The notes below the pieces were generated by a model that had not been told where the DNA came from, ran no database searches, and worked only from the letters and a program-made list of their open reading frames with translations. 60,832 nucleotides of DNA from Nitrospirota bacterium (GTDB taxonomy: Bacteria > Nitrospirota > Thermodesulfovibrionia > Thermodesulfovibrionales > UBA9159), in NCBI GenBank assembly GCA_023382175.1, contig JAMCQB010000142.1, forward strand, positions 1 through 60,832, given 5' to 3'. Below, piece after piece: positions 4,794 to 29,782 of this stretch; the first letter of the stretch is position 1; each line of letters opens with the position of its first letter. Made by a program: the position numbers and the translations under genes.

Positions 4794-4811
4794 GACTGCA
4801 ACCTTGCCTCC

Positions 4812-5432
4812 TCAATTGGATCGCAACTGTTTTGTTTTCTTTTTCTGAAGTGCACTTACTGTCTCTCTTCCTTTGATAAACGCCTCTGTATTGACCTTGC
4901 GGATTTTTTCAGGGATCCGTCCAGTGATCACCTGCAGGAATACCTTCTCATCCAAAGACAGGAACGCCGAGAGCGCGCCGACAAGTATCATGTTCACTGC
5001 CCTGGTCTCGCCCATAGACTTCGCGGTCTCAAAGGCATCGACAGGAAAGACTGCAAGCCCCCGCTGTCTGAGCCGGTCAAGTATGTCTTGCGGGTATGTG
5101 TCGATGCCCGTTGCAACAGGCGCGGGCAGGATCTTCTGCGTGTTCACAATTACCCTGGTCTTTTTGTTCATATAAGGGAGATACCGCAAAGCTTCGAGCA
5201 TCTCAAAGGATACGACGATGTCCGCACTCCCCGGCTCAATGAGCGGCGAGTATACCTTTTTGCCGAAACGGATGTGAGATATGACAGAACCTCCCCGCTG
5301 TGCCATGCCGTGGACCTCGCTCTGCTTTACGTCATAGCCGGCATTCATGAGCGCGGATGAAATGATCTCGCTGGCAAGGAGTATTCCCTGGCCGCCCACG
5401 CCGCAGAGAAGGATGTTCGCTGTCTTATCCAT
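4812..5432 (-). CDS. iorB: Indolepyruvate:ferredoxin oxidoreductase subunit beta
   Basis: 206 aa. N-terminus ILLCGVGGQGILLASEIIS, characteristic of the 2-oxoacid:ferredoxin oxidoreductase gamma/IorB fold. Overlaps iorA by 8 nt. Confidence 0.85.
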   Translation of the reverse strand: MDKTANILLCGVGGQGILLASEIISSALMNAGYDVKQSEVHGMAQRGGSVISHIRFGKKVYSPLIEPGSADIVVSFEMLEALRYLPYMNKKTRVIVNTQKILPAPVATGIDTYPQDILDRLRQRGLAVFPVDAFETAKSMGETRAVNMILVGALSAFLSLDEKVFLQVITGRIPEKIRKVNTEAFIKGRETVSALQKKKTKQLRSN

Positions 5433-12762: not shown

Positions 12763-12862
12763 AGAAGAGGGGGTTTCTCATTAATAAATTCACGTAGTTC
12801 GGGCATAATCACAGAATCCTCTCTTACCAAAAATGAATCTTATTAACGGAGGTGAGTCACCT

Positions 12863-13954
12863 ATGAGTAAGATCAAGGATGACACAAGCAGCATCTGGAC
12901 CAGTCTGGCAAAGAAGGGAGTATCAAGGAGGGACTTCATCAAGTTCTGCTCAACAATGGCGGCAACATTGGCCCTTCCCTCAAGCTTTGTTCCCCGGATC
13001 GTTGAAGCCCTCGAAAAGAAGCAGAGACCTTATGCAGTCTGGCTTGAGTTCCAGGATTGCGCAGGGGATTCTGAATCCATGCTGAGGGCGACAAAGCCGA
13101 CCATCGCAGAGGTCGTTCTGGATGTCATCTCCCTTGAGTACCACGAGACCATAATGGCAGGCTCAGGAAAGAGCGCAGAGAAAGCCCTCCAGGATGTGGT
13201 GAAAAACCAGAAGGGCAAGTACATCGCCATCGTTGAGGGAGCGATTCCCACAAAGGATGGAGGGATCTACTGCACTATCGGCGGCAAAACCGCCCTGGAT
13301 ATAGCCAAGGAAGTCTGCGGCAATGCGGCCATGAGCCTGGCCGTGGGATCCTGCGCCAGCTGGGGAGGAATTGCCAGCGCAAAGCCAAATCCCACAGGCG
13401 CGGTCGGAGTCGGAGCTGCAGTCCCCGGCATCACCTATGTCAACCTGCCTGGCTGTCCGATGAACGTCGAGAACGTGACAGCCACTGTGGTCCACTACCT
13501 CACCTTCGGCTCACTGCCTGCCCTTGACGGTGAACATCGTCCGCTCTTCGCCCACGGCAAAATTATTCATAATAATTGCGAGAGACGGGCTCACTTCGAT
13601 GCAGGACAGTTTGTGAGAAAATGGGGCGACGAAGGCCACCGGCTCGGCTGGTGCCTCTATGAGATGGGCTGCAAAGGGCCTGAAGCTCACTTCAATTGTC
13701 CCACCATTCGGTGGAACGGGGGAACAAGCTGGCCTGTACAGGCAGGACATCCCTGCTTCGCGTGTGCCAGCACCAATAACTGGGATGCCTTCGGACCAAT
13801 CTACAGCAGGCTTGAGAATGTGCCGGGAGCAGGATATCAGACCACTGCCGACAAGATCGGCGCCACTGTCGCTGCAGTTGCGGCAGCCGGTGTGGCAGCC
13901 CATGCAGTCATTCGGGCGGCAAAAGGCACACCACACAAGGAAGAGAAGGAATAA
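12863..13954 (+). CDS. [NiFe] hydrogenase small subunit (group 1, Tat-exported, C-terminal membrane anchor)
   Basis: GGAGGTG RBS before the ATG at 12863. Twin-arginine signal SRRDFIKFC. Fe-S ligand regions WLEFQDCAGDSES, GSCASWGG, PGCP, and CxxxxxxCxxP...C motifs near the C-terminus. Hydrophobic tail ATVAAVAAAGVAAHAVI. Confidence 0.9.
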   Translation: MSKIKDDTSSIWTSLAKKGVSRRDFIKFCSTMAATLALPSSFVPRIVEALEKKQRPYAVWLEFQDCAGDSESMLRATKPTIAEVVLDVISLEYHETIMAGSGKSAEKALQDVVKNQKGKYIAIVEGAIPTKDGGIYCTIGGKTALDIAKEVCGNAAMSLAVGSCASWGGIASAKPNPTGAVGVGAAVPGITYVNLPGCPMNVENVTATVVHYLTFGSLPALDGEHRPLFAHGKIIHNNCERRAHFDAGQFVRKWGDEGHRLGWCLYEMGCKGPEAHFNCPTIRWNGGTSWPVQAGHPCFACASTNNWDAFGPIYSRLENVPGAGYQTTADKIGATVAAVAAAGVAAHAVIRAAKGTPHKEEKE

Positions 13955-13978
13955 AAATATACTGAAGGAGGAGGATGT

Positions 13979-15688
13979 ATGGCGAAGATAGCGATTGATC
14001 CCATCACGAGGATTGAAGGACACCTGAGGATTGAGGCCCAGGTGGAAGGCGGCAAGGTCACGGATGCCTGGTCATCCGGCACCATGTGGCGAGGCATCGA
14101 AATCATCCTGAAAGGGAGGGATCCGAGGGAGTGCTGGGCGCTCACCTCCCGAATATGAGGGGTCTGAACAACGGTCCACGCACAGTGCTCCGTGAGAGCC
14201 GTGGAAAATGCCTTAGGGATCACCATTACCGATAACGCAAGGATCATCAGAAATATCATCAATGGGATCCAGTATGTTCAGGATCACGTAATACACTTCT
14301 ATCACCTCCATGCCCTGGACTGGGTCGATGTGGTCAGCGCCCTGAAGGCTGACCCTGCGAAAACAGCATCTCTTGCTCAATCCATATCCGACTGGGCCAA
14401 CTCTTCACCGACTTATTTTAAAACAGTACAGGGGAAGGTAAAGACCCTTGTGGAGAGCGGACAGTTGGGCATCTTTGCCAGCGGTTACTGGGGACATCCG
14501 GCCTACAAACTTCCACCTGAAGCAAACCTCATGGCGGTCGCCCATTATCTTGAAGCCCTGGACTGGCAGCGCGACGTCATAAGGATGCAGGCGCTTCTCG
14601 GCGCCAAGAACCCCCATCCCCAGACCTGGCTGGTGGGAGGTATGGCCATTCCCGTTGACCCGAACAGCCAGAACGCCCTGAACGCAGGGAGTATTGCCTT
14701 TTTGAAAGAACTGGCGACCAAGGCTCATGCCTTCGTAGAGAAGGTCTACATACCGGATCTCCTCGCCGTTGCTTCCTTCTATAAGGACTGGGCAGGGATT
14801 GGAGCCGGGGTCGGGAATTATCTCTCCTACGGTGAGTTCCAGAATGACAATGTGAGCAACACGACAAACGTCTGGCTTCCCGCAGGGTTCATCAGGAACA
14901 AGAATTTAGGCAAGGTCGAACCCATTGATCAGAAGCAGGTTACCGAAGACGTTGCCCATGCATGGTATAAATACACCGACGGCGATGACAAGGCAAAACA
15001 TCCGTGGGACGGCGAGACTAATCCGAACTATACCGGTCCGAAACCGCCCTATGAATTCCTCGACACCAACAAGAAGTACAGCTGGGTGAAAGGGATTCGC
15101 TACAATGGCCTTTCCACAGAGGTCGGTCCCCTTTCGAGGATGCTCATCGCGTATGCTTCGGGACACAAGCGCATCAAGGAAGTGGTGAATATGGTGCTTC
15201 AGAAGCTCGGAGTCGGGCCCGCAGCACTGTTCTCTACCCTCGGCCGCACCGCTGCAAGAGGCATCGAAACCCTGGTGACCGCGGAGATGCTCCCGGTCTG
15301 GATCGATGATCTGGCAGCGAAGATCAAGAGCGGAGATCTGCGCATCCATAACAACGAGAAATGGGACCCTTCCACATGGCCGAAGGAGGCAAAGGGGTTC
15401 GGCTTCCACGAGGCGCCCCGGGGCGCCCTGGGCCACTGGGTAGTGATCAAAGACGGCAAGGTCGCGAACTACCAGTGTGTAGTTCCGGGTGGCTGGAATT
15501 CTTCCCCCAGAGATGCGAAGGGTCAGAGGGGACCATACGAAGCAGCCCTCATGGATACGCCCATTAAAGATCCTAATAAACCCCTGGAAGTGCTGAGGAC
15601 CATCCATTCCTTCGACCCCTGCATGGCGTGTGCGATCCATGTGGTTGATTCGAACAGGGATCAGATCATAAAAGTCAGGGTGGTATAG
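13979..15688 (+). CDS. [NiFe] hydrogenase large subunit, interrupted by two in-frame TGA codons at 14156-14158 and 14165-14167 (candidate selenocysteines)
   Basis: AGGAGGAGGA RBS at 13966-13975 and ATG at 13979, in the same frame as ORF 14192..15688. The N-terminus [27 protein letters not shown]...[38 protein letters not shown] matches the large-subunit L1 region. C-terminal DPCMACAIH motif. Followed by cytochrome b, the maturation protease and hypC. Confidence 0.8.
14175..14205 (+). other. Stem-loop directly downstream of the two TGA codons (candidate bacterial SECIS-like element)
   Basis: UCCACG (14175-14180) pairs with CGUGGA (14200-14205). An inner GCUC (14187-14190) / GAGC (14196-14199) stem closes a CGUGA loop. 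The stem base lies 10 and 19 nt from the two UGAs. Folded by eye only. Confidence 0.3.
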
Positions 15689-15696
15689 GAGGAACT

Positions 15697-16341
15697 ATGG
15701 AAAAGAGGGTTTATGTTTGGGAGTTTCCTGTAAGGCTGACCCACTGGGTGAATTTCCTGAGCATACTGGCGCTCTCGATCACCGGCTTTTACATCGGGGC
15801 GCCCTTTCTGCATGCCATCAGGGAAAACCAGTTCATTATGGCGCAGATGCGGTTCATCCACTTCGTTTCCGCCTATGTCTTCACCGTGAGTTTCCTGATA
15901 CGGATTTACTGGCTGTTCATGGGCAATCAATACTCAAGGCTAAACCAGTTCATCTTCGTAAGCGGAGAACGATGGAAAAATCTCATCGACACCGCCCTGT
16001 TCTATGCATTTCTCAAGAAGGACCTCCCCCACTCCCCGGGGCACACCGGCATTGCCGGTCTTACCTACTTCATCATGTTCCTCATATTCCTTCTCGAGAT
16101 TTTCACAGGGTTCGCGCTCTACTCCGAAAGCCACCTGCCCGGGTTCATATGGACGTTCATGGGCGGATGGCTTTTTTCCATAATGGGAACCGGGACCGTG
16201 CGGCTCATTCACCATCTGCTCATGTGGGTGATCGGCGTCTTCACCATTGTCCATGTCTATGTCAGCTGGCATAATGACGTGATCGAAAAAAACGGGCTTA
16301 TGAGCTCTATTTTCAGCGGTTACAAGTCGATAGAGGAATAG
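15697..16341 (+). CDS. Ni/Fe-hydrogenase b-type cytochrome subunit
   Basis: 214 aa with four TM helices. N-terminus YVWEFPVRLTHWVNFLSILALSITGFYIG has the conserved His ligands typical of HyaC/HupC. Confidence 0.9.
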   Translation: MEKRVYVWEFPVRLTHWVNFLSILALSITGFYIGAPFLHAIRENQFIMAQMRFIHFVSAYVFTVSFLIRIYWLFMGNQYSRLNQFIFVSGERWKNLIDTALFYAFLKKDLPHSPGHTGIAGLTYFIMFLIFLLEIFTGFALYSESHLPGFIWTFMGGWLFSIMGTGTVRLIHHLLMWVIGVFTIVHVYVSWHNDVIEKNGLMSSIFSGYKSIEE

Positions 16342-16347
16342 GGGATA

Positions 16348-16845
16348 TTGACTACCACCGTCTTAGGTCTGGGCAATATCCTGTTGAGGGACGAGGGAGT
16401 CGGGGTTCATGCGGTAAACACCATCAAGGGACGGTATGCCTTTCCTCCTGATGTGGAGGTTATTGATGGCGGGACCTTGGGCCTCGACCTCCTTCCCCTT
16501 ATCGAAGACAGGGACAGGATTCTCTTCGTGGATGCCGTGGACTTCGGGAAGGAACCCGGCCACATCGGCATAATTGATGATGATGCCATCCCCTCTACCC
16601 TCCTGGCAAAGATGTCGGTTCACCATATCGGGCTCTCCGACGTGCTCTTTGCCGCAAAACTCCTGGACATAAAGCCGTCAAAAATCCGTCTTATCGGCAT
16701 ACAGCCTCAGTCCCTTGACGTAGGCCTTGATATGACCGAGTGCATCAGTGGTAAAATGGAAGTGATTATCAGCATGATCCTCGAAACATTAAAGGAGTGG
16801 AACATAGAATGTGCCTTGCGGTCCCCTCAGAAATTGTCAGCATAA
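16348..16845 (+). CDS. Hydrogenase maturation endopeptidase (HyaD/HybD family)
   Basis: 165 aa, TTG start. VLGLGNILLRDEGVGVHAV and DAVD motifs. Confidence 0.9.
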   Translation: MTTTVLGLGNILLRDEGVGVHAVNTIKGRYAFPPDVEVIDGGTLGLDLLPLIEDRDRILFVDAVDFGKEPGHIGIIDDDAIPSTLLAKMSVHHIGLSDVLFAAKLLDIKPSKIRLIGIQPQSLDVGLDMTECISGKMEVIISMILETLKEWNIECALRSPQKLSA

Positions 16846-17054
16846 ACGACCTCATGGCCACCATTGATGTGAACGGCGCACGGCGGGATATCAGCCTCAT
16901 GCTCCTCCCCGAAGAAGCTCAGGTGGGGGATTTTGTGATCGTGCATGCGGGCTTTGCCATCCAGAAGATCGACAGGGAGGCCGGCCAGGAGGCCCTCAGA
17001 CTGATAAAAGAGCTGGTGGAATCCGAAGAGTTCAAGGCAGAATACATGGAGTGA
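16809..17054 (+). CDS. hypC: Hydrogenase assembly chaperone HypC/HupF family
   Basis: The start is moved to the ATG at 16809, so the protein begins MCLAVPSEIV; the N-terminal Cys2 is essential in this family. Overlaps the protease gene. Ends with TGA at 17052-17054. Confidence 0.85.
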   Translation: MCLAVPSEIVSINDLMATIDVNGARRDISLMLLPEEAQVGDFVIVHAGFAIQKIDREAGQEALRLIKELVESEEFKAEYME

Positions 17055-17656
17055 AACGGTATATCCTCGCCATATCAGGCGCCAGCGGCTCTGTGTTCGG
17101 CGTCAGGGTCCTGGAAGCCATCCTTAGAAAGTCAGAAGTCCATCTTGTCATCTCTTCGCAGTCATTTTCGATCATCAGGCACGAAACCGGCATAGACTGG
17201 TCAGGAAAGACCGATGCCGAGGTGCAGAAAAAGATAAGGACATACTTCAGATCCCGCAGGATTCACTATTACAATGAAACCGATCTCGCTGCCCCCCTTT
17301 CCAGCGGCTCTTTTATCACAGACGGCATGCTCGTGGTGCCCTGTTCCATGAAGACCCTTTCAGGCATCGCTCATGGCTACGCAAACAACCTCACTGAACG
17401 GGCAGCGGATGTGACGATAAAAGAAGGAAGGCCCCTGCTTCTCGCTCCACGGGAAATGCCTTTCAGCGCAATTCATCTCGAAAACATGCTAAGGCTTGCA
17501 CGGATTGGGGTGAAGATAGCGCCTCCCGTGCCTGCGTTCTACCAGAAACCGAAAGAGCTTAGCGATATCGTTGATTTCGTTGCAGGGAAGATACTGGATT
17601 CCTTCGGCATCCCTCACGATCTCTTCACAAGATGGGGAGGACAAGAGACTACCTGA
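17051..17656 (+). CDS. ubiX: Flavin prenyltransferase UbiX
   Basis: 201 aa, GTG start. ISGASGSVFGVRVLE N-terminus and VVPCSMKTLSGIAHGYANNL motif. Confidence 0.9.
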   Translation: MKRYILAISGASGSVFGVRVLEAILRKSEVHLVISSQSFSIIRHETGIDWSGKTDAEVQKKIRTYFRSRRIHYYNETDLAAPLSSGSFITDGMLVVPCSMKTLSGIAHGYANNLTERAADVTIKEGRPLLLAPREMPFSAIHLENMLRLARIGVKIAPPVPAFYQKPKELSDIVDFVAGKILDSFGIPHDLFTRWGGQETT

Positions 17657-20522
17657 AAAGCCCATTCAGAAGCTTGTCCACAGTTCTGGGGTCTCTACAT
17701 TCTATGAGTTGCCATTTCCCATAGCCACTGTGATAGTTGACAGCCTTAACCCACCGTTCTGTTGCCGTCCTTTTCTGCCTGTCCTGTTCGGATTCATAGC
17801 CTTTTACCTCAAGGATCACCGTGGATTCGCCGCTATCGGTACTGCACCTTATCAGGAAGTCGGGATAGTAATAGTGCCGGACACCGAGGAAGTCATAGGG
17901 TATCGAGAAGTCGAGATGGTCATTCTTCACATAGGAAACGACGTTCGGATTATCCTCAAGGTAAAACGATACCGTGTGCTCCCATGAGCGGTTATCAGTA
18001 ACTACGTGGCTTACGTGGCTCTTCAATGTCGGATGCGCCCTTCTCACCGTACGGAAAAGAACCTCAGAAGTCGATCCTTTGGGCCTGAATCTTTCGATGA
18101 TCGGTAACAACGGGGCTTCACCTTCATCAACAGCGGGTTCAATAGCGGCAAGCAATCTTTCGACAATGAGTTGTATATACTTCTCAAGCGCTATCTCATT
18201 CGGCTTTGCATCAATGAATCTGACCTTCTCCTCAATAAACCTTTTCACAATAGACAAGACCTGCGGGAAAAGAATCTCCCTTGCCTGCCACTGAAATTTC
18301 TCCCTATCCTTCAACGAATTCGTTATTCTCCTGGCAATCTCGAAGATGATTTCTTTCAGCCGCCTTGTCTCATGGAAAGGATTTCGATCCTGATATGCCT
18401 CTTTGCCGGGACCCAACCGTGTGGGGAAGCCGATTTTGTATCCGACCGCACCCTTAACCACAACCTTAGTCGGCTCTTTGCTGGGGTCTACGGTGATTTC
18501 TTTCAGCTTAGACATATCAATCTTTATTCTGCTCTTCACATCAAAGACGAATCCCTCCACACGCGGAAATTCTATCTTCAGATGAACTCGATCCTTCAAT
18601 GCCTGTACAAGCGTTGAAGGCGGCGGAGGCGGTGTCGGCCCCTTACCCTTCTTCTTTACGGGGATGACCTCAAAGGGTATGCCGTACACGTCGACATATT
18701 CCTCCGGCAGCATCCCGGTTTCATCAAGTGTGTAGTTCATCCGTCTAAGACCTCGGCCGACGACCTGTTCGCAAAGAAGCTGGGATGTGAACGCTCTTAA
18801 TCCGAATATCTGTGTCACGTTGTTTGCGTCCCATCCTTCGGTAAGCATACCTACAGACACGACGCATCTCACATCCTTGCCCGGAGGATCGCCTTGGCCT
18901 TGCCATTCGGTCTTGCCGACTGTTGCAACTCTTAATCTCAATCCCTGCGCCACTTCCTGTTTTGTCTGTGTGCCGTCCTCACTTTCGGCTTCTCCCAAAA
19001 GCTTTGTGTCGATCCTCATGCTGGGCTGGAAGGACTCACTATTTCCCAATAAGTCAGGGAATAGCTTACCAGCGGTAAATATCCTCTGTTTTTCGACCTT
19101 CTTCTCCCCACTAATATATTCAAAGATTAGCTCTGCAAGGTCTGTATTATCACAAACACAGATCATCACGGGCGGGACAGGGAAGTCGTCCCTCTCGAAG
19201 TCCTTAAAGGTCTTCTTCCATTCCCCTGCGAGCATGGTAAGAGCGCCTTCTGCTTCTCTGAAAACGGATTCGGGCTTTGGTTTCCTTCTCTGTGTCGCCT
19301 TCTCGGCTCCGGGTAAAGATTCGTTTATAGTTCTCCATAAATGGAAATACTTAGGTATGGGCTGTCCCGAATTATCATCAACCGGAACTCGTGGTATTTT
19401 GACGATACCGCTTTCAATGGCATCCACAAGACCGAAGTCAGATACAAGCCAGGGCAACGGCGACCCTTCGGGATAGCCGCTCCCCTGGATATAGAAAGGC
19501 GTTGCCGACAAGTCAACGCAAAGGTTAATCTTCCGAGCAAAGTTTATCTTGTCCAGTCCGCCGATCCAAATCGTGGCTTCCTCTTTCTCTTCCTTTAGAT
19601 TTTTCCTTTCTTCGCCGCTAAGTTTCTTCAGTTCCTCTTCATTCTCAAATGGCGCGGGTCTGTAAGCATGATGTGCCTCGTCATTGAAGACCAGTATGTT
19701 TTCCTTGCCTGATAACTCCTTGAGTGTCCTGTTACAAAAAGCCCTCTCGCTTTCTTCCCCGCGTTGTATGACGCTTCTCTTCTTGCTGTCATCAACGGGT
19801 AAGAAAGAATGCCAGTTGGTTATGAAAAACTTCCCTTTTGAAAGCATATCGAGCATTGAACGGGGAACGAGATCGAACTTTTCATAGTAGTTCTCCGGAT
19901 TTGACGGATAAAGAACGGACAGGCGTTCTTTTACCGTAAGGTTCGGACATACCACCAGTACCGCATCTGAAAACCTCTTGTCTTGCCTGTACTGTGCTTT
20001 GTTGATCACAGACCATGCTGCAAGCATTGCCATGACAAGAGTCTTTCCACTTCCCGTCGCCATTTTGCAGCCGTACCGCTTTAATGGTTTATATCCTTTT
20101 GCAAGGTCCGACTCTGCGGGAAGGTCTGGCGGGATGGTTATGCCTTTCGGGTTCTTCGGCATTATCTCGGTCAGATAGATGATCGTCTCAACTGCTTCTA
20201 CTTGACAGAAGAACAGCTTTCTTTCTCTATCGGGTAAATTCCAATGTTGAAGCAGTCTTTCGGTAACTCCTGTGCCCCCTTTATATCCACCGTCGCGCCA
20301 TTCCTTGACCCTCTGCCGTATTTTGTTGATCAGCTCAAGCTCTTTGAACTGTTCTTCAACAAATAATGCAACCTGAGTATCAGCCCTCTTCCCCGTTCGG
20401 AAATAATATCCGGCGGGACGTCTGCCTGACATCTTCTTCGGCTGCCCTTCGTCATAAATCCAGTATTCCTTCGGCTCCTCGAAGGGATTGTTCAGGATCG
20501 GATTATCAACGGCAAGTGACAT
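17649..20522 (-). CDS. res: Type III restriction endonuclease, Res subunit (SF2 helicase plus PD-(D/E)xK nuclease)
   Basis: 957 aa. Helicase motif I MATGSGKT and motif II FNDEAHHAY. C-terminal nuclease YYPDFLIRC...VILEVKG. The 3' end overlaps the 3' end of ubiX by 8 nt (convergent). Confidence 0.9.
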   Translation of the reverse strand: MSLAVDNPILNNPFEEPKEYWIYDEGQPKKMSGRRPAGYYFRTGKRADTQVALFVEEQFKELELINKIRQRVKEWRDGGYKGGTGVTERLLQHWNLPDRERKLFFCQVEAVETIIYLTEIMPKNPKGITIPPDLPAESDLAKGYKPLKRYGCKMATGSGKTLVMAMLAAWSVINKAQYRQDKRFSDAVLVVCPNLTVKERLSVLYPSNPENYYEKFDLVPRSMLDMLSKGKFFITNWHSFLPVDDSKKRSVIQRGEESERAFCNRTLKELSGKENILVFNDEAHHAYRPAPFENEEELKKLSGEERKNLKEEKEEATIWIGGLDKINFARKINLCVDLSATPFYIQGSGYPEGSPLPWLVSDFGLVDAIESGIVKIPRVPVDDNSGQPIPKYFHLWRTINESLPGAEKATQRRKPKPESVFREAEGALTMLAGEWKKTFKDFERDDFPVPPVMICVCDNTDLAELIFEYISGEKKVEKQRIFTAGKLFPDLLGNSESFQPSMRIDTKLLGEAESEDGTQTKQEVAQGLRLRVATVGKTEWQGQGDPPGKDVRCVVSVGMLTEGWDANNVTQIFGLRAFTSQLLCEQVVGRGLRRMNYTLDETGMLPEEYVDVYGIPFEVIPVKKKGKGPTPPPPPSTLVQALKDRVHLKIEFPRVEGFVFDVKSRIKIDMSKLKEITVDPSKEPTKVVVKGAVGYKIGFPTRLGPGKEAYQDRNPFHETRRLKEIIFEIARRITNSLKDREKFQWQAREILFPQVLSIVKRFIEEKVRFIDAKPNEIALEKYIQLIVERLLAAIEPAVDEGEAPLLPIIERFRPKGSTSEVLFRTVRRAHPTLKSHVSHVVTDNRSWEHTVSFYLEDNPNVVSYVKNDHLDFSIPYDFLGVRHYYYPDFLIRCSTDSGESTVILEVKGYESEQDRQKRTATERWVKAVNYHSGYGKWQLIECRDPRTVDKLLNGLFR

Positions 20523-20527
20523 GATTG

Positions 20528-20902
20528 TCAGTTCCCATGTCTGTGAATTCTGTATCCCGCTTCTGCAAGAACGATAACGAAAGACTTCTCAACTCTGATA
20601 AATTCTTTCTCATACTCGAATACATCAAGAATGTTTTTGACTATTCGCGCTATATTGATAAGGTGATGCCTCAGCAGGATTACCTTGCCACTTCCCCATA
20701 GTGCCCCAAACTCGATGAGTCCTCCGAAATCCTTGTCACCTGATAGCAGAATCAAATTGTGTTTTATTGCATATGCCAGAATCTTCTCATCGCTGCTGCC
20801 GGCGAGACCTATCTCAGGAACATAAAACACACCATACCCCTCATCTCGCAAACCTTGAACGATATCGCTATGGACATTTTCATCAGCAAGTATTTTGACC
20901 AT
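20528..20902 (-). CDS. DUF5615 family PIN-like (Mut7-C-like) putative toxin
   Basis: 124 aa. MVKILADENVHSDIVQGLRDEGYGV...LILLSGDKDFG matches the DUF5615 signature. Starts 2 nt after the DUF433 gene. Confidence 0.8.
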   Translation of the reverse strand: MVKILADENVHSDIVQGLRDEGYGVFYVPEIGLAGSSDEKILAYAIKHNLILLSGDKDFGGLIEFGALWGSGKVILLRHHLINIARIVKNILDVFEYEKEFIRVEKSFVIVLAEAGYRIHRHGN

Positions 20903-20904
20903 TA

Positions 20905-21147
20905 CTATTTTCTGCCGGAAAATATCCGCACTTCCTCGCCCTGAAACTGTCTTGCGGCAAAATCCAGCGCTGCTTTCAGTCCCTCTTTTGTGAGTGTCGG
21001 ATAGCCGTGCAGGATATCATCTTTAGACATGCCGGATGCGATATTTTGCAGAATCAATGCAACAGATATCCTCGTGCCTTTAACAATAGGCTTTCCATTG
21101 AGAATCTTTGGGTCTGAAACAATCAATGCTTTTTGACGCGTTGCCAT
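20905..21147 (-). CDS. DUF433 family putative antitoxin
   Basis: 80 aa. DPKILNGKPIVKGTRISVALILQNIASGMSKDDILHGYPTLTKEGLKAAL is the classic DUF433 pattern. GGGAGGT RBS. Abuts the upstream gene with a 0-nt gap. Confidence 0.85.
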   Translation of the reverse strand: MATRQKALIVSDPKILNGKPIVKGTRISVALILQNIASGMSKDDILHGYPTLTKEGLKAALDFAARQFQGEEVRIFSGRK

Positions 21148-21990
21148 TTACTTACCTCCCTTTAGAATGTCAGCTAATGACGCTCCGAGAAACCCGGATG
21201 ATATATCTTTAAATCCAATATAATCTAAGAATATTTTTGCACGATGAGATGCAACATAAGTGTTATCGGTTATCGTAATCATATTATTAAGCCGCAATAC
21301 ATCAATTGTTACTGAGATATTGCTTTGAGCTATACCGAAAGCGATTGCCTGCGAATAAATTTCTAAGGCAGTGGCTGTGCCCTTATTAACGAGCCATAAC
21401 AAAAGCCGTTTTGTGTTGTAGACAAGAAAATTGGTCAGATTATTAAATTCCGCAATTTCTTTTTCAATAAAAAGACGGTTTATAGCATCCCTGGCTTCTT
21501 TAAGCTCATCTTGAAGTTGAGCGACGGTTTGATTCTGTCTGGTTGAATATTCCTCCCATTGCTTTAAAAGACTATAATATTCTTTGTTTTCGTTAATTAA
21601 CTGGGCCATTAACTCCTTAGTTGCTGGTTCATCCTTTTTTTCTAAAGAAGTCTCGCTTGCTGGGATGGTCACCTGAACATTTTGACTTTGCTGCGCCTGA
21701 TGGGTAAGAACAATTGTATTTAATGTGGTTGAGAGTTTCTCTTGTTCTTTTGCTACTTTTTCAACCTCTTTTTTAATTGAGAGAAGCGAGCCTACACTGA
21801 TCTCTTTCACGTCATCATAAATTAAAAAAAATAATAGCAATACTAAAGCAGTCAACAGTTCAAAAGACAACTTAAAATTCCAGAACGTTGAATACACTAT
21901 AAAGAAAATAACAATACCGGCAAATATCCATCGCCACCAAGTTTTATTTTTTTCTTTCATCTCATTGTTCTTGTCGTTCACTTCAGCCAT
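21148..21990 (-). CDS. Uncharacterised membrane-anchored coiled-coil protein with a wHTH-like C-terminal domain
   Basis: 280 aa with a GAAGGAG RBS. Two N-terminal TM helices (WWRWIFAGIVIFFIVYSTFW, LTALVLLLFFLIY). A long charged, Gln-rich helical region. C-terminus KRLLLWLVNKGTATALEIYSQAIAFGIAQSNISVTIDVLRLNNMITI resembles a winged helix. AT-rich. Confidence 0.6.
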   Translation of the reverse strand: MAEVNDKNNEMKEKNKTWWRWIFAGIVIFFIVYSTFWNFKLSFELLTALVLLLFFLIYDDVKEISVGSLLSIKKEVEKVAKEQEKLSTTLNTIVLTHQAQQSQNVQVTIPASETSLEKKDEPATKELMAQLINENKEYYSLLKQWEEYSTRQNQTVAQLQDELKEARDAINRLFIEKEIAEFNNLTNFLVYNTKRLLLWLVNKGTATALEIYSQAIAFGIAQSNISVTIDVLRLNNMITITDNTYVASHRAKIFLDYIGFKDISSGFLGASLADILKGGK

Positions 21991-22034: not shown

Positions 22035-22931
22035 TCAACACACGCCCTCAAGTCGAATTTTTAAAAACTTCTGCCGAGAAATATCCCCACCAGTTTTACC
22101 AATATATTCATCTATAATTTGTTTTGCCTCAGCTTTCGATAGTAACTGCCATAGTATTGCCTCGGACATACATAAAAAAGCAAATGTAATTACAGAAAGC
22201 GAAATATTGAAGTTCTTCCCCTCGTTTTCAGTTATGCCTGATAACAAATGATCAATGGAATCATAGTTATGTTTCTTTCTGAGACGATAAAGACAGTCGA
22301 GTAAAGACACATCCTTACAATCAATATTGCATATTCTCTTCCATTTTTTTCTTGGATGTTTGTGGTTTCGCCACTTTTCTGTCTGATGTTCCTCAAAAGT
22401 TGTTCTGCACCATAGAGCAATGTAATCAGAGCTGTTATGATATTTGGAAAGAGGATTTATCTTTTTTACAGGGCCTGCTAAATTGCTGAAACCATTTTTC
22501 CCATAACAAACATTGAAAGGATAAAGAAAGCCAAAAACAGAACTGTCCTGCGCAAATCTGTTCAGCAAGTCATTATGGCTGAACCTTGATGTTCCCAAAT
22601 ATAACTCATAAAGTGCACGCAGAGATAAGAAACATACATAATATGCTTGAACAATTTTCCAACCAAGGAAGTAGATGATATCGACTGCATTAATATCAAA
22701 ATAAAATTCTTGATGAAGATTCATCTCAGTAAGCCAGCAGTTATGTAAAGTTTTTCTGACATTGTCCATATCAACATCTGAACATCTGCTTACAGAAGTT
22801 GATACTTTTTGCGATAGGATTCCTTGACGTAACTTTCTAAAATCAAGCTCTCCATTTGCATAGCTATCTATACTTGCTTTTCTTATGTGATAAAGATAAT
22901 TTGATAGAACAGTAAATTTTATTCCTTCCAT
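22035..22931 (-). CDS. Uncharacterised protein with a candidate HEPN Rx4H motif
   Basis: 298 aa, no TM segment or signal peptide. LYRLRKKHNYDS (R216-x4-H221; nt 22269-22286) fits the HEPN Rx4-6H signature. AT-rich. Starts 9 nt after the mod stop. Confidence 0.55.
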   Translation of the reverse strand: MEGIKFTVLSNYLYHIRKASIDSYANGELDFRKLRQGILSQKVSTSVSRCSDVDMDNVRKTLHNCWLTEMNLHQEFYFDINAVDIIYFLGWKIVQAYYVCFLSLRALYELYLGTSRFSHNDLLNRFAQDSSVFGFLYPFNVCYGKNGFSNLAGPVKKINPLSKYHNSSDYIALWCRTTFEEHQTEKWRNHKHPRKKWKRICNIDCKDVSLLDCLYRLRKKHNYDSIDHLLSGITENEGKNFNISLSVITFAFLCMSEAILWQLLSKAEAKQIIDEYIGKTGGDISRQKFLKIRLEGVC

Positions 22932-22940
22932 TTTGATTAT

Positions 22941-25535
22941 TTATCCTATCTCCCTCACTACCATAACCTCATTCCCTCTGTGGTCGATGACCTTGACGGC
23001 GATACGTTTCTCTTTGCCTAATTTGAAGGGCAGGGAACGGGTGCTGGTGAGGAGTTCAAACTTGTCTTCATCGATAGATGCTTTTAATGCTCTTTTTAGC
23101 CTGTCCCAGGCGCTGGAATCAGGGAAGAATGCCTGTGATATGCAGAAAGTGCGTTTATCGTAGTCGGTATCTATGAACCATGCGGCGATCTTGCTTCCAT
23201 TGTCTGAATAAACTTCTCCTGTCAGTGGGTCATAGATGTCAACCCCTTTTAGGATTACCTGGAATTCGGCCTCTTCCGAAAATCCCCCCTTGCCCCCTCC
23301 GGAATCATAACTCCCCCTTCCCCCTCTTATCTTAAGAGGGAGTGCCGAAGGCGGAGGCGTTATTATCTCAACATCGGGTTCGCCGAAAACGGTAAACAAC
23401 TGACTTGCGGCTGTGGTCTTCAGTAGATCACCCATCAGCACATCGGGGCGGATATGGGAATAAAAGACCTTTATTTTCGGGTGTCTGACATCCTGAGCAG
23501 CGGCGTCGAAGGCAAAGCCGCAAAAGATAATCGCATTATACCCGCTCAAATACGCATCATGAATCCCGTCCTCGACCTGCCTCACGGTAACAGGTCCGTG
23601 TGGCGGCCCGAAGGATACGGCCACTTTCTTGATGCCATTTTTTTCAACGGGTTCTCCTTCAGCGTGGATGAACCCACTGCTTACCGGTATCAGGTTCTCG
23701 AATTTCATCTTCTTGTTGCCAGGGAACGTCACCCCATCTTTACGGAAAAGCTCAATAAGGGTATGGACATGGTTATCGGCGTCTACTCTTATTGTGTCAT
23801 TCCGAGCGGAGCGAGGAATCTCGTCTTTAGATTGCTTCGTCGCTTCACTCCTCGCAATGACAGCCGCTTCGGTCTCATAATTAGCTTCTTCAAAATCCAG
23901 TGTCGAATGTTGAGGTATCCCCTCTACGGTAAAAGGGCCTGCAACCCTTATTTTTTTCTTGTCAATCTCAGGCTTATCGAACAGGATTTCCTTGTCAGGT
24001 TGTCCATTCTGCGCAATAGATTTCAATGTCACGTGGGGAACTTCCTCATAGATAAAACCGCCCTTGACACCCATTTCCTCATCGGCAATCTTGTAATATG
24101 GGTAAGCAGCAGTCATCAGTCTTTGCCTTGCTATTGTAAGGGCTACTCTTGATGTGTCACAAGTTATCCAGCGCCTTCCCCATTGCTCTGCAACGAATGC
24201 AGTTGTGCCACTGCCGCATGTGGGATCGAAAACCAAATCCCCAGCATCTGAGGTCATAAGAATGCATCGCTGTATCGGCAGGTCTGCCGTTTGAACTACA
24301 TAAACCTTCGATGTAAATGTTCCAATTATGGTATCGTTCCATACATTCACAAGTGGCATAACGGGGAAATCGTCTTCGTACCGCTTGTAAGCTAAGATAC
24401 TCCCAAGCGAAATAATGCGGTTAGCTTCACGAAGTCCTTCCATTCCTTCTTTATTAGTAGACCAATGTCTTCCCTTAGATGGAAAGTACCCCTTACCTTC
24501 AAACTTAAATTCAAATGATCCAGCTTTTGTTTCTCCTTGTCCTGAGATGTCAGCTGCTCGAAACCGTCTACCTTCGGGCAGTTCTACATCACCTTTCATT
24601 TCATCTTTGCTTAAGCGTCTGCACGTTCCATCTGGCAATTCAATCCACGAGAATGTTCCTAAGTCTGTTCTTTCAACTTTTGGAACATATAACTGGCGAT
24701 ATTTAACCTGTGATATATCTTTTGCATACCATAAAATATAGTCATAGCTACTTGATAATAGCTTGCCAATTAGAGCAGCTGTTTTTGCAAATGTGATCAT
24801 TCCACAGAAGTTCTCTTTACCAAATACCTCATCCATCAACTCCCTCACATGATGCAGATTCTCATCCGATATCTGAACAAAGATGCTTCCGGAATCTGTC
24901 AATAGATCGCGACTCAATAGTAATCTGTCTCTCAGGTATGAGAGATATGAATGTATCCCCAGCTCCCATGTGTCACGATATGCCTTGATCTGTTCGGGTT
25001 CCCGCACCATGAATTCATCCGAATCCTTCACGTCCCTTTGCTTAACAGAAGGCTGGAAGTTTGAGGAAAACTTGACGCCGTATGGAGGGTCAACGAAGAT
25101 AGTCTGGACCTTTCCGCCCATCATTTCCCGCTCAAGAAGGGAATTCATGACCAACAGGGAATCACCGAGAATAAGTCTATTAGTCCAATCCATCTCATGC
25201 TGATAAAATTCAACAAGAGTTTTTAGGGGCATGTCAGGTTTAGCAAATAAATCAGGTTGAGGGCTTTCTCTTTTAATTGAGCGGATTATCGCTTCGGGTG
25301 CGACATTTTCATGGATATGCAAGGATACTGTGGGAACTTCAAAGGAGGTATGTTCTTTCTTCCCTGACCAAATCAGTTGCGGGTCAAGATGGGGATCGTA
25401 GTCGTATTTTTTTGGTTTCGGCTTCGAGGTATCATACGAGGCAAGACCTACGGGGACAGCATTTTTCCGTGTTTCGGCTTCATGCCGATAGGAATCTATA
25501 TCATCTTCACCTGAATTCCTTTTCTTCTTGGCCAT
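22941..25535 (-). CDS. mod: Type III restriction-modification DNA methyltransferase, Mod subunit (beta-class N6A/N4C methyltransferase)
   Basis: 864 aa. Catalytic motif IV IFVDPPYG precedes the AdoMet motif I VFDPTCGSGTTAFVA (beta-class order), with an AT-rich variable region between them. Carries two repeat-derived in-frame segments. Confidence 0.9.
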   Translation of the reverse strand: MAKKKRNSGEDDIDSYRHEAETRKNAVPVGLASYDTSKPKPKKYDYDPHLDPQLIWSGKKEHTSFEVPTVSLHIHENVAPEAIIRSIKRESPQPDLFAKPDMPLKTLVEFYQHEMDWTNRLILGDSLLVMNSLLEREMMGGKVQTIFVDPPYGVKFSSNFQPSVKQRDVKDSDEFMVREPEQIKAYRDTWELGIHSYLSYLRDRLLLSRDLLTDSGSIFVQISDENLHHVRELMDEVFGKENFCGMITFAKTAALIGKLLSSSYDYILWYAKDISQVKYRQLYVPKVERTDLGTFSWIELPDGTCRRLSKDEMKGDVELPEGRRFRAADISGQGETKAGSFEFKFEGKGYFPSKGRHWSTNKEGMEGLREANRIISLGSILAYKRYEDDFPVMPLVNVWNDTIIGTFTSKVYVVQTADLPIQRCILMTSDAGDLVFDPTCGSGTTAFVAEQWGRRWITCDTSRVALTIARQRLMTAAYPYYKIADEEMGVKGGFIYEEVPHVTLKSIAQNGQPDKEILFDKPEIDKKKIRVAGPFTVEGIPQHSTLDFEEANYETEAAVIARSEATKQSKDEIPRSARNDTIRVDADNHVHTLIELFRKDGVTFPGNKKMKFENLIPVSSGFIHAEGEPVEKNGIKKVAVSFGPPHGPVTVRQVEDGIHDAYLSGYNAIIFCGFAFDAAAQDVRHPKIKVFYSHIRPDVLMGDLLKTTAASQLFTVFGEPDVEIITPPPSALPLKIRGGRGSYDSGGGKGGFSEEAEFQVILKGVDIYDPLTGEVYSDNGSKIAAWFIDTDYDKRTFCISQAFFPDSSAWDRLKRALKASIDEDKFELLTSTRSLPFKLGKEKRIAVKVIDHRGNEVMVVREIG
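23281..23342. repeat. Palindromic G/C-tract element (family E-like) lying in frame inside mod
   Basis: The minus strand reads ctccctcttaagataagagggggaagggggag...ggagggggcaaggggggatt and encodes PLKIRGGRGSYDSGGGKGGF. It has an 8-bp hairpin CCCTCTTA/TAAGAGGG and resembles 44650..44686. Confidence 0.45.
23796..23861. repeat. MITE-like palindromic element, family B, inserted in frame (66 nt = 22 codons) inside mod
   Basis: gtcattccgagcggagcgaggaatctcg...gattgcttcgtcgcttcactcctcgcaatgac. The minus strand encodes VIARSEATKQSKDEIPRSARND. A related intergenic copy is at 55579..55658. Confidence 0.7.
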
Positions 25536-25569: not shown

Positions 25570-25854
25570 TTAAGCTACCGCTTTTTCCGGTTTCATCCAT
25601 GCTGGCAGAGGCTCCCCAGTTGCCTCATGATAAAGCGTCTCAGGCGCAATGTCCAGACCATCGGGCCAGCACAATGCTCCGATTTCCTTGTTCACGTAAA
25701 ACTGTTTAAAATATCCGATATCGGAGAAGCGGCTGAAAACGCCGCCTTTTTGGCTATGGTCCTTCAAATCAACAATCCCCTGTTGGCCATTTTCGAAGAT
25801 AAGTTCAAGTTTATATCCTTCAATATACCTTGCTTCCAAAACATCATAATACAT
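25570..25854 (-). CDS. DUF2442 domain protein
   Basis: The start is placed at the ATG at 25854, with an AGGAGG RBS 5 nt upstream. MYYDVLEARYIEGYKLELIFENGQQGIVDLKD...ALCWPDGLDIAPETLY matches the DUF2442 pattern. The ORF-track extension to 25947 belongs to the shifted DUF4160 tail. Confidence 0.75.
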   Translation of the reverse strand: MYYDVLEARYIEGYKLELIFENGQQGIVDLKDHSQKGGVFSRFSDIGYFKQFYVNKEIGALCWPDGLDIAPETLYHEATGEPLPAWMKPEKAVA

Positions 25855-25925
25855 TATGACCTCCTGGTACTTCAGGGGTTCTATCGGGAACAAAGGCTTT
25901 TGATCTCTTGCCAATTCCCAATCTT

Positions 25926-26117
25926 TCAATAATTCCTCTCCGCCCATTCTATCACAAGCCCTAAAGCTTCCGGCGGCAAATATCCTTCCAGTATTGCAAA
26001 GTCCTCAATTCTTACCGCTATCGAATAACTCCCGTATCTTGCATGAAAATGAGGAGGATTGTGATCATCAAAAAACATTGCTATGACTATGCCAAAGAAT
26101 CTGCTTATCTCAGGCAT
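25926..26117 (-). CDS. DUF4160 family protein, apparently truncated by a frameshift
   Basis: ATG at 26117 with an AGGAG RBS. MPEISRFFGIVIAMFFDDHNPPHFHARYG is the DUF4160 signature. It stops after ...VIEWAERNY, while the expected tail (EELLKDWELARDQKPLFPIEPL) continues in the -1 frame. Confidence 0.6.
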   Translation of the reverse strand: MPEISRFFGIVIAMFFDDHNPPHFHARYGSYSIAVRIEDFAILEGYLPPEALGLVIEWAERNY

Positions 26118-26125
26118 TGTGGCTC

Positions 26126-26228
26126 CTATATGATGCAAGCCCCACAGGAACATCATTCTTCCGCGTTTCGGCTTCGTGACGATAGGAATCTAGATCTTCT
26201 TCTTTCTTCCGGGCCCTCTTTGCCAATT
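26126..26228 (-). pseudogene. Remnant second copy of the mod 5' end (about 35 codons)
   Basis: The minus strand reads TTG-AKRARKKEEDLDSYRHEAETRKNDVPVGLASY, compared with the mod N-terminus MAKKKRNSGEDDIDSYRHEAETRKNAVPVGLASY. By eye the nucleotide identity to 25433..25532 is roughly four-fifths. The remnant ends overlapping the DUF4160 start codon. Confidence 0.6.
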
Positions 26229-27707: not shown

Positions 27708-28210
27708 TGTGAGTTGCACTTTCTCCTTGCCCAAATACCATGATTTCTGGTATAAATAAAGTAAGTTCAGCTTGAGGGCAGTTTGCCTGCCCTGTTTGTG
27801 ATGGGTGAAAAAAGTTGATCCGGCAAATTAGATCTTTTGGGAGTCAGAGTAAGGAGTGCGGTGTGCATGCCGGGCATTCATTTGCCCGGAAGCCTGAAGG
27901 CTCCTTCAAGACACCCACCTATATTGTAGGCGGATCTAATTCTTCACTGACACGGCAGGGCGGGTTTATTTTGCGGGTTCTCATGATCGCTTTGCTTTTT
28001 GCGAGGAATTTAAATAAAAAAATAGAGGAGTCTGGTAAAATGCCTACCTTCACCAGGGGTTGCCCCATTTCAGGCAGCCGGAAAGACCGACCTGTTCCGG
28101 AAGATTCCTCTTCATTCCAAAGCGTATTTTCTTTCCTGCTCTCCTCGCAATAGCATAATAGACACAGCAAGCCCGCGCTACCCTCATCGGAAATATACTA
28201 CGAAAGGGGG

Positions 28211-29782
28211 ATGTGTGCGATGATCGACGTGTGGTACCTGCTCATTGCTGTTATAATCGGCATTTCACTTGGCGTACTCCTGAGCCTTATATACAAACGC
28301 TCCATCAAAACCCAGCAGTTGGCCCTGAAACAGGAAAAAGAACATATTATCGCAGAGGCAAAAAAGACGGCGGATGTCATCAAGAAGGAAGCCGCGATGG
28401 AGGCGAAAGACCTTGTATACCAGGCAAAATCAGAGGCCGAAAAGGAGATCAGGGAGAGGCGCAATGAACTGAACCAGCTGGACAGGAGACTCAGGCAGAA
28501 GGAAGAGGCCCTGGAGAGAAGGGTCAGTCAGGCAGAGAAAAGGGAACACGAGCTCAACAAAAGAGAGAAGGAATACAACACAAAGGAACGGGGGCTTCAG
28601 GACAAGGAAAACCAGTATGCGCAGATCATCAAGGATCAGATGGCAGTCCTGGAAAGAGTTTCCGGCTTAGGTGCGGATGAAGCCAGGCAGGAACTCGTCA
28701 GGAGGGTGGAAGAAGAGATGCGCTTTGAATCCTCAAAGCTTGCCAAGAGGATAGAGGATGAGGCACGGGAAGGCGCCGAGAAGAAGGCAAAGGAGATCGT
28801 GAGCCTGGCGATCCAGAGGTATGCCGGCGACTATGTGGCTGACGGCACGGTGACGGCAGTAAGCCTCCCCAACGATGAAATGAAAGGAAGGATCATCGGA
28901 AGGGAGGGGAGGAACATCCGTGCTCTGGAAGCTGCCACGGGGGTGGACCTCATTGTTGACGACACCCCTGAACTTGTAACCCTTTCCGGCTTTGACCCTG
29001 TGAGGAGGGAAATAGCCCGTATGTCCCTGGAAAGACTGATCGCCGACGGAAGGATACATCCGACCCGGATAGAAGAGATCGTTGAGAAGGTCAAGAAAGA
29101 AGTGGATGCCACTATCAAGGAGGAAGGAGAAAAGGCGGTCTTTGACCTCGGCCTCTCCGGCATACACCCCGAGATCATACGGCTCCTTGGGAGGCTCAAG
29201 TACCGGACGTCCTACGGACAGAACATGCTCCAGCACTCAAGGGAAGTAGCCTATCTTGCAGGAATGATGGCCGCGGAACTGGGCGTTGATGTGAAACTGG
29301 CAAAGAGGGGAGGACTCCTCCACGATATCGGAAAGGCCGTGGACCACGAAATTGAGGGCTCCCATCAGGAGATAGGCTCAAACATCGCAAAGAAGCACGG
29401 AGAGAACCAGAAGGTGGTCAATGCAATCCATGTACACCATGGCGATGCAGAACCAACTACGGTGGAAGCTGCCCTTGTTGCAGCGGCAGACGCTCTCTCT
29501 GCTGCAAGGCCGGGAGTGAGAAGGGAGAGCATCGAGAACTATCTGAAACGTCTCGAAAAGCTGGAACAGATGGCGATGTCATACAACGGCGTGGAGAAAT
29601 GTTACGCCATACAGGCAGGGAGAGAAGTAAGGATCATCGTGAAACCGGAAGATGTCACTGACGACATGGCGTCCATGCTTTCCCGGGACCTCTCGAAAAA
29701 GATTGAAGCCGAGCTGACCTATCCGGGCCAGATAAAGGTCACCGTCATCAGAGAATCAAGATATGTGGAGTATGCAAAGTAA
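28211..29782 (+). CDS. rny: Ribonuclease Y
   Basis: 523 aa. N-terminal TM helix, coiled coil, KH domain ([15 protein letters not shown]) and HD domain (LLHDIGKA). The start could instead be the ATG at 28220. Confidence 0.95.

Follow-up and report, generated by a model that had tools for sequence, protein, structure and literature searches.

A protein family with a profile-level link to HEPN domains, encoded within a type III restriction-modification operon of a Nitrospirota bacterium and behind other restriction-modification genes

The window, by which we mean the whole stretch of 60,832 nucleotides (nt) analysed here (Nitrospirota bacterium, GenBank assembly GCA_023382175.1, contig JAMCQB010000142.1), encodes a 298-residue protein, X298, inside a type III restriction-modification (R-M) operon. 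We found that X298 is a selected, mobile, single-gene module, which has a HEPN-like core and an invariant set of His, Arg, Tyr, Asn and Glu residues and which recurs in one operon with R-M genes of different types. Its family is undescribed until now, and none of Pfam, NCBIfam, PADLOC and PHROGs offers a model for it. We presume, at a probability of roughly 0.5, that X298 is a stand-alone, enlarged and distant offshoot of the HEPN-T group (PF05168/UPF0332 type) acting as a latent RNase module of the abortive-infection (Abi) type. The gene and its parts are as follows.

22035..22931, minus strand: X298 gene, 298 amino acids (aa), HEPN-T-like family member (open reading frame and translation)
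22533..22769, minus strand: putative HEPN core helices 1 and 2 and short His helix, residues 55-133, with W66, E69, W91, Y97, Y98 and H119 (AlphaFold2 helices 55-72, 82-112 and 119-133; segment matching PF05168, 9xbc/9xbd and UPF0332)
22575..22577, minus strand: codon of H119, the proposed alternative catalytic His (invariant, 99/99; aligned with the S-H of UPF0332/PF05168 'SFSSHSAVI')
22317..22532, minus strand: family-specific insert, residues 134-205, between the His helix and the motif helix (AlphaFold2 secondary structure)
22143..22316, minus strand: putative HEPN core helices 3 (210-223, motif at its end) and 4 (235-263, with E257), residues 206-263 (AlphaFold2 model and hhalign without the insert)
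22263..22286, minus strand: family motif R216-L-R218-K-K-H221-N222-Y223 (R218 and Y223 99/99; R216 and N222 98/99; H221 6/99)

The initial annotation had placed a 298-aa open reading frame at 22035-22931 directly downstream of mod, and the reading frame, its translation and the distance of 9 nt from the mod stop codon to the X298 start codon bear this out. X298 is a real gene under purifying selection, because the ratio of nonsynonymous to synonymous substitution rates (dN/dS) was 0.07 against the 90%-identical copy in locus L009 and 0.11-0.16 among the other close copies of the family. The GC content of the gene is 34.6%. Its grand average of hydropathy (-0.29) is consistent with a probably soluble protein and its AlphaFold2 model is almost all helix, as the same annotation had predicted.

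A word-indexed search returned 11 full-length close relatives (61-90% identity) and one truncated one, none of them annotated, and a profile search that was exhaustive over 1.84 billion cluster representatives found 224 distant relatives at E<=1e-3, which are mostly about 320 aa long and 20-29% identical. About 220 family clusters were defined at 50% identity, and all counts out of 99 refer to a 99-sequence alignment of the family, A3. In A3, W66, Y97, Y98, H119, R218 and Y223 are invariant (99/99), H119 being the sole invariant His, and E69, R216, N222, E257 and R293 are conserved in 98 of the sequences; W91 was also counted among the conserved residues of the family. The family motif reads [LF]-Y-R216-L-R218-x-[RK]-[SA]-N222-Y223-x-[DE]-x-[DE]. 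All 13 genome loci lie in metagenome-assembled genomes (MAGs), whose labels are Omnitrophota, Chloroflexota/Dehalococcoidia, Acidobacteriota, Clostridia, Parcubacteria and a proteobacterium; NCBI attributes one close homologue to a Nitrospiraceae MAG. A look for expression data turned up the X298 locus in DNA metagenomes only (mine tailings, sediment, groundwater). A phage origin of the family was considered and set aside, as no relatives were found among the IMG/VR viral contigs with the search patterns used. One relative, P0012 (216 aa), is identical to P0006 over its first ~150 residues and then diverges and is truncated, probably through a sequencing error or because it is a pseudogene with a frameshift.

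Evidence for a relation to HEPN came from several profile comparisons. When the 99 members were scanned singly against Pfam, 15 of them matched PF05168 (HEPN) at E<=0.01; the matches were weak, and the only other Pfam matches were four unrelated singletons, with about one chance match expected over all families. P0124, a distant relative outside the 99, reached 23.0 bits against a PF05168 gathering score of 22 and was the only one above this cut-off among 10 distant relatives scanned singly. The PADLOC model HEPN_IX was weakly matched by three members (PADLOC matches were weak overall), and one member carries the JGI label UPF0332 family. In a profile search over 177,635 PDB sequences, the only matches with E<0.01 were 9xbc and 9xbd, 'HEPN domain-containing protein' (E 9e-4 and 1.1e-3), in an alignment spanning Y97/Y98 to H119, and a profile without the insert again placed these two entries on top with E-values that were not improved; a PDB sequence search with the close-family profile matched nothing. 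PMC13000451 was considered as the source paper of 9xbc/9xbd and rejected, since the entries are not mentioned there.

The initial annotation had proposed a profile-profile check, and this we carried out by hhalign against a single HEPN alignment (UPF0332/PF05168), which was built from 20 relatives of the 9xbc/9xbd protein, all but one with a precomputed PF05168 match and several labelled UPF0332. A3 matched it with 82.5% probability (E 1e-5, score 39.9), in agreement with the HEPN-like guess, while reversed A3 scored 14.3 and 30 column shuffles scored <=15.2, all at <=0.5% probability. The relation to an accepted HEPN family is detectable at the profile level, with a weak to moderate signal over ~50 residues. 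The UPF0332 consensus reads ...SRAYYAMFY.AEALLL..GLSFSSHSAVI.AFGREFAK....HR.LIDAQDLRN.GDY, and the invariant H119 pairs with the His of the HEPN 'SSHS'. After removal of the insert the hhalign alignment extended further, and R218 and Y223 then fell on the Arg and the Tyr, respectively, of R-N-x-G-D-Y; in the ungapped register against UPF0332 it is R218, and not R216, that pairs with the HEPN Arg.

Previous work described the HEPN motif as sitting at the C-terminal end of helix 3, and noted that AF0298-like HEPN-T proteins and AbiV lack the motif His but retain the Arg, and carry a further conserved His in the element that links helices 2 and 3, which could form an alternative active site (Anantharaman et al. 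2013, PMC3710099). The X298 family has both the basic motif residue (R218) and the conserved His between helices 2 and 3 (H119), and its residue pattern, as far as sequence can tell, matches this 'alternative histidine' form of AF0298-like HEPN-T and AbiV.

The AlphaFold2 model of X298 that was built with A3 had a predicted local distance difference test (pLDDT) score of 92.5 and a predicted template modelling (TM) score of 0.92; a first model, built from 12 close sequences, was poor (pLDDT 57.5) and was discarded. The helix order in the model is as expected for HEPN, with the motif at a helix end and H119 at the start of helix 119-133 between helices 2 and 3. The core would be made of helices 55-72, 82-112, 210-223 and 235-263, and the additions to it would be two N-terminal helices, the insert of ~75 residues and a C-terminal helical tail. 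The insert has no counterpart in UPF0332-type HEPN proteins of ~120 aa and comprises, in the model, a beta-hairpin (142-149), a helix (167-188) with T177/T178 and a basic loop (189-205).

The initial annotation had based its HEPN-like guess on a different argument, namely that R216 and H221 form a catalytic Rx4H pair. The string LDCLYRLRKKHNYDS is present in X298 at the positions it gave (R216 = nt 22284-22286, H221 = nt 22269-22271), and a canonical HEPN RNase with an R216...H221 dyad can draw on the conservation of R216 (98/99) and on the invariance of H221 in its own clade. Both residues are indeed invariant in the close set (the 11 full-length sequences of 61-90% identity), which says little because the mean column identity there is 79%. 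H221 is His in only 6 of the 99 aligned members, all from the window's own clade, and this lack of conservation is what the initial annotation had named beforehand as speaking against its proposal. Outside that clade the position holds Ser (70), Ala (14) or Thr, these three accounting for 88 of the 93 distant members, with no other His in the region. At the end of core helix 3 no conserved His stands 4-6 residues after R216 or R218, and the canonical His position, five residues after R218, is held by Tyr (Y223) in all 99. The residue following R216 is hydrophobic and not polar, and the UPF0332 register favours R218 over R216. Moreover, at least one Rx4-6H match occurred in 81% of 5000 shuffles of X298 (mean 1.6 matches), and the native protein has two, R176x5H182 and R216x4H221; the former was rejected as a site since H182 is not conserved in A3. 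The Rx4-6H string in X298 is no more than chance and its statistical weight is nil, because 81% of shuffles have one, and we regard the R216/H221 dyad as very improbable. What stood of the HEPN-like guess was the superfamily, through profile links that are independent of the motif, and what fell was the motif itself: the argument was wrong in detail and statistically empty, and the guess itself probably holds on other grounds. A relationship to the Abi or DUF4145 types, which the initial annotation had suggested, found no backing either, as Abi_2 (AbiD/F), DUF4145, AbiV, AbiU2, AbiJ and the other named R-M-linked HEPN families were unmatched in Pfam and PADLOC scans of X298 and the 99 members. 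X298 is a caution that isolated Rx4-6H strings tell nothing.

We then considered the genomic setting of the family, using 13 genome and 44 metagenome loci for the neighbour counts (loci of relatives were sought with a 20-sequence subset of A3). The family gene is repeatedly found immediately after R-M genes, of types I, IIS, IIG-like and III, on the same strand, with gaps of 5-21 nt to the upstream R-M genes in several loci. The commonest Pfam families among the neighbours are R-M components, comprising Methylase_S, N6_Mtase, N6_N4_Mtase and the D12 methyltransferase, ThaI, AlwI, Eco57I and McrBC, and ResIII and SWI2/SNF2. Individual settings are the following.

Window and L008: type III mod upstream of the family gene
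L007: type III mod-res upstream, with res adjoining the family gene
L016-L018 and P0165: Eco57I-like enzyme of 1500-1640 aa upstream
L019: AbiEii upstream and type I hsdM-hsdS directly downstream
L020: type I hsdM-hsdS upstream and a HEPN/RES-NTD1+RES protein downstream
L027: AlwI upstream
L021: DUF499 ATPase upstream
L015: family gene beside Zorya, integrase and HNH genes

An all-vs-all BLASTP comparison of the 266 proteins neighbouring the family gene in 23 loci showed no fixed partner gene beyond close synteny, and a fixed two-gene system was rejected, as neighbour clustering gave no conserved partner. The 280-aa protein that follows X298 in the window has no homologue beside any other family member, and the three candidates for a shared partner (this 280-aa neighbour and proteins of 426 aa in L016 and 444 aa in L005) are unrelated to one another.

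For the HEPN-T-like RNase that we favour, we predict an active site in which H119, the first residue of the short helix that follows core helix 2, is joined by R218 and Y223, together with R216 and N222, where core helix 3 ends. X298 would be a metal-independent RNase using H119 and R218, with Y223, N222 and E69/E257 assisting, or, if not an RNase, at least an effector that binds RNA. It would share a transcript with the type III mod and be kept latent, its N-terminal helices and insert may be regulatory or sensor elements, and a breach or bypass of the R-M barrier would set it off, as an abortive-infection-type second line of which PrrC-EcoprrI is the paradigm. We infer all of these points: the fold identity, the RNase activity, the parts played by H119 and R218, the latency and the trigger.

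A HEPN-derived but non-catalytic protein, binding nucleotides or RNA as a sensor or adaptor and either modulating the neighbouring R-M or defence enzymes or signalling that they have failed, would account for the missing canonical His, since HEPN domains without the motif may bind rather than cleave (PMC3710099), and for the tight coupling to upstream R-M genes in the loci with 5-21 nt gaps; the insert and the N-terminal helices could then be interaction surfaces. We hold this to be unlikely, however, given that an invariant His, two Arg, a Tyr, an Asn and two Glu across 20-29% identity resemble an active site, that the family lacks one conserved partner which it could regulate and that some copies have no nearby defence gene.

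Several observations weigh against the HEPN-T-like RNase. X298 itself matched no model in Pfam (E<=0.1), PADLOC, NCBIfam or PHROGs, none of the 99 aligned members scored significantly against NCBIfam, and X298 scores below the PF05168 gathering threshold and does not belong to that family proper. All sequence evidence comes from one segment of 45-56 residues (the Y97-H119 region), the C-terminal half alone gave a non-significant E of 0.22 against UPF0332, and removal of the insert did not raise the scores with either hhalign or the PDB profile. The canonical catalytic His is absent from the family, PF05168-type HEPN domains include non-catalytic binders, and the activity of the variant is itself a prediction. 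As to the setting, R-M neighbours occur at only ~1/4 to 1/3 of the loci, the copies in L001-L004 stand alone among housekeeping genes, and no antitoxin or regulator is evident next to X298. Finally, a Foldseek search of the pLDDT 92.5 model against PDB and BFVD gave no significant match and listed no HEPN entry (best E >1; TM score <=0.30 in BFVD and <=0.22 in PDB), a result which, for an all-helical query of 298 residues with an insert of ~75 residues in its putative core, neither confirms nor cleanly refutes the HEPN fold that the initial annotation had proposed to check in this way.

The Foldseek result, the confinement of the similarity to ~50 residues at E 1e-3 to 1e-5 and the failure of X298 itself to match a HEPN model would also be expected if X298 were not a HEPN protein, and came from an unrelated all-helical family in defence islands with a convergent helix-loop-helix segment (YY...A...SH). 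This we consider rather improbable, because four independent libraries or searches agree on both the superfamily and the segment, the controls lie far below the real hhalign score, and the second block, R-x-x-[SA/G]-[N/D]-Y, has the order, helix position and residues of UPF0332. Descent of X298 from the HEPN superfamily is accordingly likely in our view; we do not rate it higher because of the Foldseek null, the signal of ~50 residues, the null for the C-terminal half, the lack of gain without the insert and the lack of a curated-model match.

In the window, the remaining genes of the operon are these.

25570..26156, minus strand: DUF4160 (25926-26156) and DUF2442 (25570-25947), operon head (Pfam 7.8e-17 and 7.5e-17)
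22941..25535, minus strand: mod, type III R-M methyltransferase, 864 aa (PADLOC MTase_III 8.5e-188, Pfam N6_N4_Mtase 1.4e-27)
21148..21990, minus strand: Y280, orphan 280-aa protein, 35% GC (no family match in Pfam, PADLOC, NCBIfam or PHROGs)
20528..21147, minus strand: DUF433 (20905-21147) and DUF5615/PIN_10 (20528-20902), toxin-antitoxin-like pair between X298/the 280-aa gene and res (Pfam 4.9e-22 and 1.3e-19)
17649..20522, minus strand: res, restriction subunit, 957 aa, last gene of the operon (NCBIfam NF046055 'BPTD_3080 family restriction endonuclease', 1026 bits with a cut-off of 800; Pfam ResIII)

The genes are tightly packed on the minus strand in the order DUF4160, DUF2442, mod, X298, the 280-aa gene, DUF433, DUF5615-PIN_10 and res. 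With Mod and Res on one strand this is a type III R-M operon, with four extra genes between the subunits, and the position of X298 between mod and res agrees with the embedding in R-M operons to which the initial annotation had pointed. Residues 858-925 of Res have a weak TnsA-like nuclease match in Pfam, which suggests a C-terminal PD-(D/E)xK nuclease. The 280-aa orphan begins with two hydrophobic helices, continues as a coiled coil and ends in a part of winged-helix-like appearance. The DUF4160 and DUF2442 genes, another toxin-antitoxin-like pair, overlap by 22 nt just upstream of mod. The R-M block of ~9 kb is an insertion that lies between two housekeeping regions, a NiFe-hydrogenase operon on one side and Memo, 6S RNA, RNase Y and YmdB on the other. 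GC content drops stepwise, from 52-56% in the flanks through 43-50% in mod and res to 35% in X298 and the 280-aa gene, which gives the latter two the look of a subsequent arrival in an R-M operon that was itself foreign. In the close clade, the GC content of the family gene is 52-53% in L001, L005 and L011 and 34-36% in the window, L007 and L009, which suggests that it has long been resident in some hosts and was recently acquired by others.

Among known systems, the classical HEPN or HEPN-T proteins (PF05168, UPF0332; AF0298-like, PDB 2HSB; 9xbc/9xbd) share with X298 the helix-2 pattern 'aYYa.y...A' followed by a loop and S-H, and a later R-x-x-[small]-[D/N]-Y block at a helix end; AF0298-like members also draw their His from between helices 2 and 3 and not from Rx4-6H, and HEPN-T genes occasionally cluster with R-M operons (PMC3710099). 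Unlike them, X298 is 2.5 times larger (two N-terminal helices, the insert of ~75 residues with its beta-hairpin and a C-terminal tail), falls below every curated threshold, has the extra family invariants W66, E69, W91, E257 and R293, and belongs to a family with no minimal nucleotidyltransferase (MNT) partner among its commonest neighbour families. AbiV of Lactococcus is a stand-alone HEPN-type defence protein, as X298 would be; it has been grouped with HEPN-T for its alternative conserved His (PMC3710099) and is a metal-independent RNase that is expressed without harm to uninfected cells (bioRxiv 10.1101/2024.05.05.592566). However, the AbiV models of Pfam and PADLOC are matched by no member of the X298 family, and lactococcal AbiV has R91...H97 and an RNA antitoxin (abiV2), for the like of which there is no room beside X298 because the flanking intergenic gaps are 9 and 44 nt.

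At least 16 HEPN clades include genes that lie within R-M operons (PMC3710099). PrrC-EcoprrI resembles X298 as a HEPN-type gene inside an R-M operon, and the logic proposed for it, as for X298, is that of a latent RNase freed when restriction is defeated. PrrC differs in having an ATP-binding cassette (ABC)-ATPase regulatory domain and a canonical Rx4-6H, neither of which X298 has, and the X298 family, unlike PrrC-EcoprrI, is not bound to one R-M type. The HepT/MntA type VII toxin-antitoxin system (DUF86 HEPN) is of the same superfamily and has a Tyr next to its Arg motif, which in HepT is the site of AMPylation and functionally important (PMC13000451); HepT, however, is of a different HEPN clade, has a canonical R-phi-xxx-H, is always paired with MNT and has no sequence match to X298.

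The X298 family is new and unmodelled, and probably belongs among the HEPN effectors embedded in R-M and other defence loci. HEPN RNases in R-M operons are already known and the biology of X298 is unsurprising. If the activity proves true, X298 adds a defence gene missed by present annotation pipelines, provides an experimental handle on the 'alternative histidine' HEPN site proposed in 2013 and shows that single-gene effectors are shuffled among R-M types. Further, X298 might be a portable single-gene anti-phage effector whose non-canonical site joins a His from the helix 2-3 element to the Arg/Tyr of a degenerate HEPN motif, its insert a novel domain that senses infection and itself a back-up for any R-M type, or else a new fold mimicking one HEPN segment; we regard this as doubtful.

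Other loci of the family gave additional observations. In L020, the HEPN/RES-NTD1+RES protein (4482-5729) brings two candidate toxin modules next to each other inside a type I R-M operon. A block of the Eco57I-like enzyme, the family gene and a 426-aa coiled-coil protein with C-terminal hydrophobic helices recurs in L016-L018 and P0165, and in L016 and L017 it is followed by GmrSD and a DEAD/Helicase_C/MZB protein of 2087 aa; the whole may form a composite defence system of greater size. In L008 (3451-5900), mod is called as two open reading frames (288 and 535 aa) that together match the Mod of the window, a split that might reflect phase variation, a frameshift or a faulty assembly. In L009 the 90%-identical homologue is followed by a 414-aa open reading frame (1673-2917) that differs from the 280-aa gene and by eye resembles putative regulators of the ATP-binding Schlafen/AlbA_2 type. 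As for the flanks of the operon in the window, positions 12833-17656 (plus strand) encode the small and large NiFe hydrogenase subunits, a cytochrome b, the HycI maturation protease and a flavoprotein, and a full-length 6S/SsrS RNA (27781-27970, plus strand; Rfam RF00013, 87.9 bits) immediately precedes the RNase Y gene (28211-29782).

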